A DNA stretch of 64,000 bases from an uncultured Planctomycetaceae bacterium (GCA_963813715.1 CAWFAK010000007.1:384001-448000), one strand, 5' to 3'; shown: positions 50,984-53,443, numbered from the stretch's first letter. The notes: generated from the letters alone by a model not told the origin. Translations and numbers: made by a program.

Positions 50984-51103
50984 CTCGCCGCCCGAACGGT
51001 TCGCCCACTCGCCGGCACTGTAGTGGAGCTTCCACGGGGTGGCTGCGGTAGAGCCGTCAGGCTCGCCCCAGGTCTGCAATCGCCGGTTTCCTTGTTCAAA
51101 TGA

Positions 51104-51447
51104 CGGAATTATGCACTAAACAAAGCCGACCCTATTGGTTGGGATAGCCGCGGTATTCCAGTTCGCCACGCTGTTGCAGTGCGGGTAGCAGCGTGGCGAC
51201 ACAGCCGGAGAGTAAGGCTAGGCCGATCACGACGCAGATAAAGACGCCGATGAAGGGCGGCCGTTTCCCAAAGCGGCGGAGCACCCACAAGACTGCCAGG
51301 GTAACGAGCCCAGCGACCGCTCCGTCAAAAGCCAAGAGAAGCAACATCCCCATGCCGTCATTCTCGCGGCTTCTTTGGACTCTTGGGCTTCCCGCGGAAC
51401 CATACTCTCGGGCCGCGTCTCTTTGGATGCGCCGCCCACTAATTCCG
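51104..51447. mobile_element. 344-bp non-autonomous gene-carrying element (IS1595-like ends)
   Basis: Terminal inverted repeats CGGAATTA (51104-51111) / TAATTCCG (51440-51447); direct repeat TCAAATGA at 51096-51103 and 51448-51455. Confidence 0.7.
51132..51353 (-). CDS. small two-TM membrane protein (passenger gene)
   Basis: 73 aa with two hydrophobic segments separated by RRFGKRPP; lies inside the 344-bp element. Confidence 0.55.
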   Translation of the reverse strand: MGMLLLLAFDGAVAGLVTLAVLWVLRRFGKRPPFIGVFICVVIGLALLSGCVATLLPALQQRGELEYRGYPNQ

Positions 51448-51702
51448 TCAAATGAAAGTGTCCGGACCGGATTCAGACTTCGTCCTAAACCGTATTCGCT
51501 GCGCCTCTTAACCCCGGTCTAAATCCGCATTGTGAAGATTAGACCGGACCGGACCTGACTCGACGTTTTGTGCTTTACAGTCGAGCCAAGCACGGGGTGA
51601 AGCTATGAGGAGCGGTAAGAGGTAGGCCGAGCCGGTTGGTGGTTGTGCTTGAACGTGGTAAACGGAGTTTGTTGCCAACCGTTTCCACAAAAGGACACCG
51701 CC

Positions 51703-52722
51703 ATGAAATTTGCCGGCTGCGACCTACACAAGCAGACTATCACGATTTGCGTCGTCGACCAATTGCGGCGGGTTTTGGAGCGTCGGACCGTGCGTTGTGG
51801 CGAAGAGCGGAGCATCCTCGCATTTTTCGAGAGGCTCGGGGAGTTCGAGGCTGTCGTGGAAGCGACCGCCAGCTACGAATGGTTCGTGCGATTGATCGAG
51901 CCCGTGGCCCATCGCGTGTTGTTGGCTCACCCCAAGAAGCTGCGTGTGATTGCCGAGAGCACGCGTAAAAGCGATCGGCTCGACGCGCAAATCCTCGCGG
52001 AGTTCCTGGCCTTGGACATGATTCCGACGTCTTACCGGGCGACTCCGCGGCAGCATGAGCATCGACGACTGGTGCGTCAGCGGGGCGGCGTTCAACGGCG
52101 ATTGACCTCCGTCAAGAACCGTCTGCGCCGCATTCTCTGCGACTACAACGCGGATCGTCCCAGTCTGTTCACCGTGGACGGGTTGGCGTATCTCGCCAAG
52201 TGCCTCTCTTGGGAGCGGATCGGTTCGCCGTGGATCAGATGGTCGAAGAGTTGCACTTCGGGCGGCGTCAGCTGCTGGCCGTCAACGCCCGGCTGAAGGA
52301 GTTCGCCGAGGCGGCGCCGCTTTGCGAGCAGGAAAGCGCGGACGCTGTTGCGGACGATCCCCGGAGTGGGCTTCGTGACCACCGAAGTTGTGCTGGCCGA
52401 GTTGGCAGACATTGATCGCTTCGGTTCGCAAAAGCGGGTCGTCGCTTACGCAGGGCTCTCACCGGGTCAACGCGAGAGTGCGGGCAAGAGTCGGGAGCTG
52501 CACCTGGAGAAGAACGGTTCGACGCTGCTGCGCTCGACGCTGGTCGAAGCCGCCTGGCGGCTGGTTCAGCACTCGTTACGTTGGCGTCGGATTTATGAAC
52601 GATTGAAGTTGCGCGTGCGTGCCAAGAAGGCGATCGTCGCCGTGGCCCGCCGGTTGTTGTGCCTGATGACAGCGATCTTGAAGACGGGCCAACCCTACTC
52701 GCTGAGCCAGCAACCGACTTAA
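51703..52722 (+). CDS. IS110-family DEDD recombinase/transposase (frameshifts at ~52205 and ~52345)
   Basis: GCDLHK, VEAT, KSDRLDA, TIPGVG, YAGLSP..RESAGK and KAIVAVARRL motifs; AAGGA RBS. Confidence 0.92.
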
Positions 52723-52779
52723 ATCCCTGACCTTGGCAGGAGAGCACAAAACAAAACATCGATCGAAAGCGCTGCGACG

Positions 52780-52965
52780 ACCCACAGACGACCCCGCCCC
52801 CGGCCATGAAGGCGTTCCCTCAAAGAGCGACCTTCGAAGGGTGAATGGGGCGTCTCTCGAAAGTCGGCTTCCTGGCGACATCGACGGACCTGTTCCAGAC
52901 CGTTGGTGATCCCGAATAGATGGTTGAGCGTACCGCATCGCCCAGATCACCACTTCAAACGCAAA
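52780..52965 (+). ncRNA. predicted bridge/seek RNA of the IS1111-group element
   Basis: Two stem-loops whose unpaired segments match the target (CCCCGGCCA 52798-52806, GGGTG 52839-52843) and the circle junction (ATAGATG 52916-52922, CTTCA 52953-52957). Boundaries are approximate. Confidence 0.75.
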
Positions 52966-53125
52966 AACCAACCCTTGACGCTACCCTTCTCATAGATGGC
53001 TGGGGTCGAGCCATCAGCCTCGCCCTTAGGTCCGCGACCCCACCGGTCTCGTGGTGCAAACGAAAGTGTCCGGACCGGGTAGTGGGGGCGTTTCCCACCT
53101 GAATTTTGGGGATTGGCACCGGAGT

Positions 53126-53349
53126 TCAGTGAACCCAAAAGCTCAGATACCATTCGAGCGCGGACCCAGCCCAAACAGACTGGCTCGCTAGCCAGAAGAT
53201 CGGTGCGTAGATCGCCTAACGGTTTCGTCGCTATCGGGCGACGTGACCAGCCGCATGGCCGGCCCGGCCGAAAGCGGATACAGCACGAAGAGTGCGAGCA
53301 TCGTCCAACAAATCCATGCCCGCTGCCGTCTCTTCGGTTCGTCGCTCAT
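53126..53349 (-). CDS. small membrane protein, paralogue of 2615..2932 (one frameshift)
   Basis: Manual translation: MSDEPKRRQRAWICWTMLALFVLYPLSAGPAMRLV... then, shifted, AIYAPIFWLASQSVWAGSALEWYLSFWVH*; GAGG RBS. Confidence 0.65.
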
Positions 53350-53443
53350 GCTGGCACCTCAGCGATTGGGACGGGACTTGGGTAGTGGGTGCGAGTTGTG
53401 TTGCTGGATGATCAGGCCGCTGGCGCGAGACCGCGTACGGTGA

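Follow-up and report, generated by a model that had tools for sequence, protein, structure and literature searches.

The window, that is, the whole stretch of 64,000 nucleotides analysed here, contains an insertion sequence of the IS110 family, IS1111 type, on its plus strand (51598-52996; 1399 bp including one of the two TG dinucleotides that flank the element on both sides). The boundary is ambiguous by two bases and can be read as 51598-52996 or 51600-52998; the junction letters are ...GCACGGGG-TG/AAGCTATGAGG on the left and CTTCTCATAGA/TG-GCTGGGGTCGAGCC... on the right. The left half of the target with the core, GCACGGGG-TG, lies at 51590-51599 (plus strand), as read from the window itself, the flanks of other copies, and empty-site contigs, and the core, the right target half (TG-GCTGGGG), and the remainder of the interrupted repeat (family R2) lie at 52997-53030 (plus strand). 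The host assembly (7.49 Mb in 18 contigs, 82.6% complete) carries eight copies of the element with identities of 97.3-100%; all eight share TG as the core dinucleotide at both junctions, with no target duplication. A subterminal inverted repeat, CTATGAGGAG, begins 3 nt inside the left end (51603-51612, plus strand) and pairs with CTTCTCATAG, 1 nt inside the right end (52986-52995, plus strand). The two are 10 nt long and 90% complementary, and this length is within the range of 7-17 bp given for the IS1111 group in the passages cited from PMC11208160. The non-coding ends comprise 103 nt upstream (51600-51702) and 274 nt downstream (52723-52996) of the gene, the arrangement by which the IS1111 group is recognized. 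The subterminal repeats and the long downstream non-coding region are marks published for this group, at least in the cited parts of PMC11187229 and PMC11208160, and the element was assigned to the IS1111 type on their basis.

The DEDD transposase gene (51703-52722, plus strand; located by Pfam matches and copy alignment) is broken in the window copy. Alignment with the intact copies showed that a C is missing after 52195 and that an extra A is present at 52333, and the domains PF01548 (DEDD_Tnp_IS110, E = 3.8e-15) and PF02371 (Transposase_20, E = 4e-23) fall on separate ORF pieces. The open frame is retained in four other copies in the genome, the one at C5:643843-645255 among them. The intact product (P0001) has 339 aa counted from its ATG, which fits the IS1111-group size of 330-350 aa, and it scored 217.8 bits against the NCBIfam model NF033542, 'IS110 family RNA-guided transposase', for which the cut-off is 140. 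All 28 relatives compared share D7, E53, D91, D94, and S259, which are the putative catalytic residues. Among solved structures, the alignment was limited to the C-terminal domain, with the ISCro4 and IS621 transposases (E about 1e-13). In the plasmid collection 1165 records matched the protein, all with less than 60% identity (23-40% among the matches listed), and the matching records are annotated merely as 'IS110 family transposase'. The frameshifts leave the window copy without an enzyme of its own; it is thus non-autonomous, yet its RNA and ends appear intact. The analysis supports the proposal of an earlier note on this DNA that the locus holds an IS110/IS1111-type element with a TG core and a guide RNA encoded downstream.

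The interiors of the left and right ends contain a second, longer imperfect inverted repeat (51634-51653 and 52954-52973; 20 nt, 80%). Its GGTGGT/ACCACC part is seen again in the relatives, directly upstream of a conserved TTGAC(A/G) box, which corresponds to 52975-52980 in the window, about 18 nt from the right end. This box could be a candidate -35 element of a circle-junction promoter. A promoter and terminator scan of 51500-53100 returned no promoter-like site and one terminator-like site, which is located within the gene. The interrupted repeat belongs to a larger composite repeat, with AAATGAAAGTGTCCGGACCGG present on both sides of the element (51450-51475 and 53056-53080), and some RNA-library contigs jump back by 1603 bases, from 53069 to 51467.

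Environmental sequences provided an independent view of the empty site. Six metatranscriptome runs contain most of the stretch including the element. In contigs from all four of the runs examined, which come from four studies, 51597 is followed immediately by 52997, so that 1399 bases are absent, with two bases (TG) ambiguous; the matched sides at these joins measure 54-69 nt. The contigs thereby confirm the restored target CACGGGG-TG-GCTGGGG that had been deduced from the window. The contigs that carry the element in the four runs agree with the intact-frame version at its three indel differences, and loose contig ends correspond, by eye, to the left flanks of three other copies in the host genome. 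One run (X4), a soil or rhizosphere RNA library, has a loose end at 51594 at which the element is joined to another left flank; by eye, this flank is one base off a site at C5:1286406 that is empty in the host genome, which suggests that the element has recently moved, or is still moving, within the population. These RNA-library contigs show presence only, carry no information on strand, ends, or level, and possibly include DNA. The circle junction, predicted solely from the element ends, would read CATAGA-TG-AAGCT. Among the contigs of the four runs, none spans such a junction, which is no argument against a circle.

The insertion sites of the eight copies define the target. GGGTG is found directly 5' of the element in every copy, and the right flank is TGGCCGGGG in four copies, TGGCCGGGC in two, TGGCCGAGG in one, and TGGCTGGGG in the remaining one, the window copy. 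A single REP-like hairpin repeat, GGGTGG-CCGGGGCGCTCCGC-nnn-GCGGAAGCCCCGG, holds six of the eight copies at its 5' foot; this main target repeat has 38 copies in the genome at no more than three mismatches, and on three other contigs (L014, L018, and L051) the same element likewise lies inside it. The repeat R2 interrupted in the window has the foot GGGTGGCYGGGG in common with the main target repeat and a different inner hairpin. Counting of occupied and empty 12-mers in the host genome showed that site occupancy follows the match to the guide described below: the perfect 12-mer GGGTGGCCGGGG is occupied in four cases and empty in four, the 12-mer ending in GGGC is occupied in two and empty in four, that ending in GCCGAGG is occupied in one and empty in two, and the window type GGGTGGCTGGGG is occupied in one and empty in 18. 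Other single-mismatch 12-mers, none with more than 15 copies (15, 12, and 10, for instance), are all empty. The main target repeat often occurs in inverted pairs about 100 bp apart, in the manner of BIME-style REP pairs (for example, C5:643750/643848, C12:91870/91978, and C16:212277/212380 in the host genome, G000).

The RNA that would read these sites begins with a target-binding hairpin at 52786-52855 (plus strand), delineated by the minimum free energy (MFE) fold and by RNAalifold and pair counts on 18 homologues. Its outer stem P1 consists of AGACGACCCC (52786-52795) and GGGGCGTCT (52847-52855), forming nine pairs with one bulged A, and its inner stem P2 (52808-52817 with 52825-52835, including GAAGG at 52808-52812 and CCTTC at 52831-52835) is capped by an apical loop at 52818-52824. 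The two strands between the stems are the predicted guides. The 5' strand, CCCCGGCCA (52798-52806, plus strand), would read the top strand of the core and right target; it is a perfect 9/9 complement of TG-GCCGGGG, the common right flank TGGCCGGGG with the core included, and it pairs with the TGGCTGGGG of the window at 8/9 positions plus an rG:dT wobble at G52802. The 3' strand, GGGTG (52839-52843, plus strand), identified from the flanks of all eight copies and from homologue co-variation, would read the bottom strand of the left target and core. The guides are identical in all eight copies, and the only variable sites within 52786-52936 are 52819-52822, in the apical loop. In dinucleotide shuffles of the 274-nt non-coding tail, the reverse complement of TGGCCGGGG appeared in 64 of 20,000, and the same 9-mer with GGGTG no more than 80 nt downstream in 1 of 20,000. 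The MFE fold of 52780-52965 has an energy of -63.0 kcal/mol and includes both hairpins proposed in the earlier note. This stability is ordinary for the composition (z = -1.74; 9 of 200 shuffles were equally stable), as is that of the whole 278-nt tail (z = -0.19), and folding of the single sequence is thus no evidence by itself. An Rfam scan of 51000-53400 at E up to 1 found no family, only a chance match to mir-223 on the other strand.

The protein has numerous relatives; of the candidates scored, 3538 had E values of 0.001 or lower, and DNA was taken from three sources. GTDB species genomes provided seven loci, all in metagenome-assembled genomes of Planctomycetaceae or Pirellulales; 21 of 398 same-family genomes, the host genome counted, had a match at E up to 1e-60; and the best 80 of 323 relatives on metagenome contigs were kept. 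In the sources sampled, the element is found in Planctomycetaceae genomes and in soil or water metagenomes. The same landmarks were recognized in 99 of the 124 loci scanned, which yielded 67 distinct combinations of element and site in which both flanks were present, and 50 distinct guide pairs. The 5' guide matched its own right flank at an average of 6.68/9 and the flanks of other lineages at 4.37, and the 3' guide matched its own left flank at 6.02/7 and those of other lineages at 4.14, neither difference being reached in 10,000 permutations (0/10,000 each), figures that are generous because the homologues are kin and not independent. The score of the 5' guide was 8 or 9 of 9 in 26 of the 50 lineages and 5 or less in 14. 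About a dozen of these 14 low scorers are anchoring errors at a look-alike of the upstream stem (L065 and L086, for instance, match well with simpler anchoring), and the self scores are lowered by these misplaced guides; L017, L039, and L084 seem to be genuinely poor matches. Guides and flanks change together among relatives whose proteins are 55-81% identical. Examples are GGCGTGCCA with the flank TGGCACGCC (L015), GCCAATACCA with TGGTATTGGC (L056), and, within one genus (L028, L030, and L032), TCGGGCTTA, TCGGGCCTA, and CGGGCCCA with TAAGCCCGA, TAGGCCCGA, and TGGGCCCG, respectively.

The natural guide/flank pairs also provided insight into mismatch tolerance. Among the 39 distinct pairs with at least 7/9 matches, 15 are perfect, and positions 2-4, which are the second core base and the two bases that follow it, are free of mismatches in all 39. 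The mismatches fall at positions 5-9 and also, in a clade with U at that place in its RNA, at the first core base. Transitions are tolerated at positions 5-9 in this set, and the wobble of the window is at position 5. Transition mismatches at guide positions 5-7 include rG:dT in L043, L064, and L061, and rA:dC in L016, L035, and L052. In L016/L023, L035, and L052, the guide CCCCAGCCA is found in TGGCCGGGG sites, and the resulting rA:dC at position 5 is the mirror image of the rG:dT in the window.

These results bear on what had been claimed from the window alone. The assignment of hairpin 1 as the target-binding loop is upheld, with its stems in place to within one base and both its strands co-varying with the flanks over about 50 guide pairs, and the pairing of its loop strand with the window site (8/9 plus a G-T wobble, opposite GGGTG) is present in the sequence as stated. 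The unoccupied neighbouring copies A (GGGG-TG-GCTGCGG at about 51034) and C (GAGA-TG-GCTGGGG at about 53985) are also as described, and the view that the guide accounts for which nearby repeat copy was hit is supported. The claim that the RNA is programmed against the window's own repeat did not survive: the guide matches TG-GCCGGGG at 9/9, and six of the eight copies sit at that other REP-like repeat. Of the predicted insertion site, the GGGTG left side is shared by all eight copies, and the right flank TG-GCTGGGG is found only in the window copy. The window insertion is thus probably a near-cognate event at TG-GCTGGGG, which carries one transition opposite G52802.

RNAalifold analysis of 18 relatives (L053 and L057 were dropped from the 20 chosen on account of a mis-anchored start and a long insertion) revealed three helices, P1, P2, and P3. 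P3 is a conserved hairpin at 52873-52914 (plus strand; TGGCGAC ... GATCCCG with a variable top), supported by compensatory changes. After removal of three predicted pairs between the guide strands, 33 pairs were left, in which 97.1% of the cells were paired, compared with 85.8% in shuffled alignments (reached in 0 of 500) and 32-48% when the partners were slid. Changes on both sides were found in 16 of the 33 pairs (5 of 10 in P1, 7 of 10 in P2, and 4 of 10 in P3), and the 10 pairs of P3 were formed in 100% of the cells. The second hairpin of the earlier note, TGGTGATC (52904-52911) with GATCACCA (52945-52952), forms 8/8 pairs in the window and is mutually exclusive with P3, since 52904-52911 is the 3' strand of P3. 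In the 18-sequence alignment, in which the 3' arm of hairpin 2 falls in a poorly aligned region, 50.9% of its cells pair, compared with 49.2% in shuffled alignments, and 190 of 500 shuffles reach this value; in an alignment-free test, 8/8 pairs were found in 4 of 60 lineages. For the window sequence alone, the fold with hairpin 2 is at -63.0 kcal/mol and that with P3 enforced at -60.6 kcal/mol. Hairpin 2 therefore stands as a feature of the window sequence and its MFE fold and falls as a conserved one, being lineage-specific and lacking co-variation support; it may represent a lineage-specific alternative conformer. The segment comprising its 3' arm GATCACCA and the adjacent CTTCA (52945-52957, plus strand) is likewise lineage-specific and unsupported as a family feature.

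P3 separates two segments that would recognize the element ends. Directly 3' of P3, all relatives have GAATAGATG, which equals the right end plus the core, and in the window the corresponding guide ATAGATG (52916-52922, plus strand) has the same sense as the last five element bases and the core. In the CG-core lineages L040, L041, and L046, GAATAGATG is changed exactly to GAATAGACG, and the same TG-to-CG change is found in the 3' target guide and in both flanks, so that the proposed role of ATAGATG as the right-end donor guide gains from both its invariance and its following of the core. On the 5' side, the eight nucleotides preceding P3 matched the left end at a mean of 4.81/8 in 48 lineages (0/10,000 permutations). 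With G, A, or C at left-end base 3, the expected RNA base C, T, or G was found in 12/14, 22/25, and 1/8 cases, respectively, and with C at base 2 the expected G was found in 3/3. This co-variation points to GCTTC (52867-52871, plus strand) as the probable left-end donor guide, complementary to G-AAGC, the second core base and the first four element bases; C52872 faces the core T as a mismatch, and the left-end guide is only 5 nt long. The co-varying guide is thus not CTTCA at 52953-52957, which had been put forward for the left end. Downstream of the donor module, a 5-mer complement of the core and left end was found in 4 of 60 lineages, with a shuffled mean of 1.44 (55 of 2000 permutations). 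For a possible donor-closing helix between CTCGA (52856-52860) and TTGAG (52924-52928), the 18 sequences contained a single compensatory change, in L024, and a single break, in L033.

With the proposed donor guides on either side of P3, the two modules would share one plan, in which a top-strand guide is followed by a hairpin and then by a bottom-strand guide. This plan fits the guide order of IS1111 elements in the cited part of PMC11187229, in which a top-strand match lies 5' of a bottom-strand match in the downstream non-coding region, and the remark in PMC11208160, as far as cited here, that the bridge RNAs of IS1111 elements are in the right end and have their donor guides in a multi-loop. 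Five independent insertions in a sister lineage (L028, L029, L030, L062, and L063 in genus g26; genomes G102, G103, and G087) have TG on the left and TA on the right. The complement of TA stands at the end of the target guide in this lineage, and TG is read by both the donor guide and the 3' target guide. The genomes contain many GGGTAAGCCCGA and GGGTAGGCCCGA sites without an insertion, with 12/12 matches in G087, for example, and GGG-TA-AGCCCGA sites are abundant. The TA/TG junctions suggest that the right-hand partner brings the second core base with it; a base that travels in this way would make the shared core in effect a single base. That the clade combines a donor module of the same design as the target module with strand exchange solely after the first core base, neither of them known to have been described for the IS1111 type, is a tentative reading that we regard as doubtful, and a donor module of such shape may already have been shown for ISPa11 or others.

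Taken together, the best explanation is that the locus is a frameshifted copy of an IS110-family element of the IS1111 type, with TG as its core, which encodes a two-module bridge/seek RNA as its guide and was inserted at a near-cognate site by a recombinase supplied in trans; we assign this reading as a whole a probability of about 0.8. The 3' non-coding region would encode a predicted bridge/seek RNA of about 150 nt, from 52786 to about 52936. In its target module, P1 would close a loop in which CCCCGGCCA pairs with the top strand of the core and right target and GGGTG pairs with the bottom strand of the left target and core, the two jointly specifying GGG-TG-GCCGGGG, the 5' foot of the REP-like hairpin repeat. 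In its donor module, GCTTC would pair with the left end and ATAGATG with the right end and core, with P3 between them. By analogy with published relatives, the element would be excised as a circle joined at TG, and the RNA would be made from the downstream region, processed, and bound by the transposase. The DEDD/serine recombinase would be supplied in trans by the four intact copies. The two modules would then bring circle and target together, and strand exchange at TG would leave no duplication. The near-cognate site in the window would be tolerated because its sole difference is the rG:dT wobble at guide position 5. The steps of RNA production, processing, binding, and recombination chemistry are those of the published relatives, from which we infer them.

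The alternatives differ mainly in what is thought to have selected the window site. On the version of the earlier note, the RNA is programmed for the window repeat (GGGG-TG-GCTGGGG) and its donor loop is hairpin 2, presenting ATAGATG and CTTCA. The pairing with the window site, the 8/8 pairs of hairpin 2 in the MFE fold, the perfect complementarity of the 5-mer CTTCA to TG-AAG, and the slight excess of such 5-mers downstream are all in keeping with this version. Against these stand the six copies and the perfect match at another repeat, the occupancy of 1/19 for window-type 12-mers against 4/8 for perfect ones, and the rarity of the complete hairpin 2, which lacks co-variation and competes with the co-variation-supported P3. 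We consider the programmed target of this version largely refuted and the version as a whole unlikely.

A variant guide, CCCCAGCCA, with A at 52802 and perfect complementarity to TGGCTGGGG, might instead have delivered the window copy, either with later gene conversion to G or as an RNA acting in trans from a copy missing in the incomplete assembly. Relatives with exactly CCCCAGCCA in TGGCTGGGG sites do exist (L024, L083, and L111), and the gap in the assembly leaves room for a further copy; G is nevertheless present in all eight copies and in the same element on the three other contigs, and other lineages repeatedly show transition mismatches at guide positions 5-7, which makes tolerance of the wobble the simpler reading. 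Both routes taken together appear quite improbable. A more radical view would have the protein alone pick the site by reading the repeat, with the non-coding complementarity having no guiding role. The element is known here from its sequence, and to that extent this view is accommodated; the joint change of guides and flanks over about 50 guide pairs, among proteins 55-81% identical, and the experimental finding that relatives need and obey their RNA (as cited from PMC11187229 and PMC11208160) make it highly implausible. We hence retain near-cognate insertion directed by a guide RNA cognate to the main target repeat as the preferred reading.

RNA guidance of the IS1111 type, its downstream RNA, REP targets, and natural retargeting have already been published, and the known mechanism is unchanged by these findings. 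What is new is a well-resolved natural record of a near-cognate insertion and a clade-wide guide table. About 50 differently programmed relatives constitute a natural guide/target table with a picture of mismatch tolerance by position, and a single genome allows the occupancy of perfect, wobble, and mismatched sites to be counted. In Planctomycetes, REP-like repeats act as landing pads for IS1111-type elements. A search of the literature accessible here found no paper linking Planctomycetes, IS110, and bridge RNA. RNA-guided recombinases of the IS110/IS1111 kind are under development for genome writing, and their natural diversity is the raw material. If the repeated-design reading is true, one repeated RNA design would read both DNA partners, and if the one-base core also holds, the window element would belong to a large set of orthologues reprogrammed in nature, from which rules for guide mismatches could be extracted.

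The core of IS621 is CT, and that of the window element is TG. The IS621 protein gave a significant alignment only in the C-terminal domain (E = 2e-13, residues 191-336). Like the window element, IS621 has a two-module RNA that reads both strands, with a 2-nt core, and its natural target is also a REP element, according to the parts of Durrant et al. 2024 cited here (PMC11208160; 8WT6 and others). The IS621 RNA is, in contrast, encoded upstream with the guide order reversed, and its donor guides face each other across a simple internal loop, whereas those proposed for the window element flank a hairpin (PMC11208160, same parts). ISPpu9 and ISPpu10 of Pseudomonas putida likewise belong to the IS110 family and are present in several copies, all of them inserted in repetitive extragenic palindromes, in the cited portions of PMC12288879 and bioRxiv 10.64898/2026.03.19.712850; they differ from the window element in host phylum and target.

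The closest likeness is to the IS1111 elements with seekRNA, namely ISEc11, ISPa11, ISKpn4, and ISPst6, for which the cited sections of Siddiquee et al. 2024 (PMC11187229) describe a downstream non-coding region and subterminal inverted repeats shared with the window element, and likewise a DEDD transposase, guide matches that overlap at the insertion point, and no target duplication. The ISEc11 transposase has 339 aa in the part of a review table cited here, the same length as that of the intact product. The long forms of the seekRNAs (148-172 nt) are similar in size to the span of about 150 nt at 52786-52936, and the short forms (82-96 nt) are near that of the 70-nt target hairpin (PMC11187229, same sections). 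The target sequence is different in the present element, the identity of its protein to the plasmid-borne IS110-family genes found stays below 34%, and its RNA is a prediction from sequence. ISPa11, in the passages cited from PMC11187229 and PMC11208160, also targets REP sequences.
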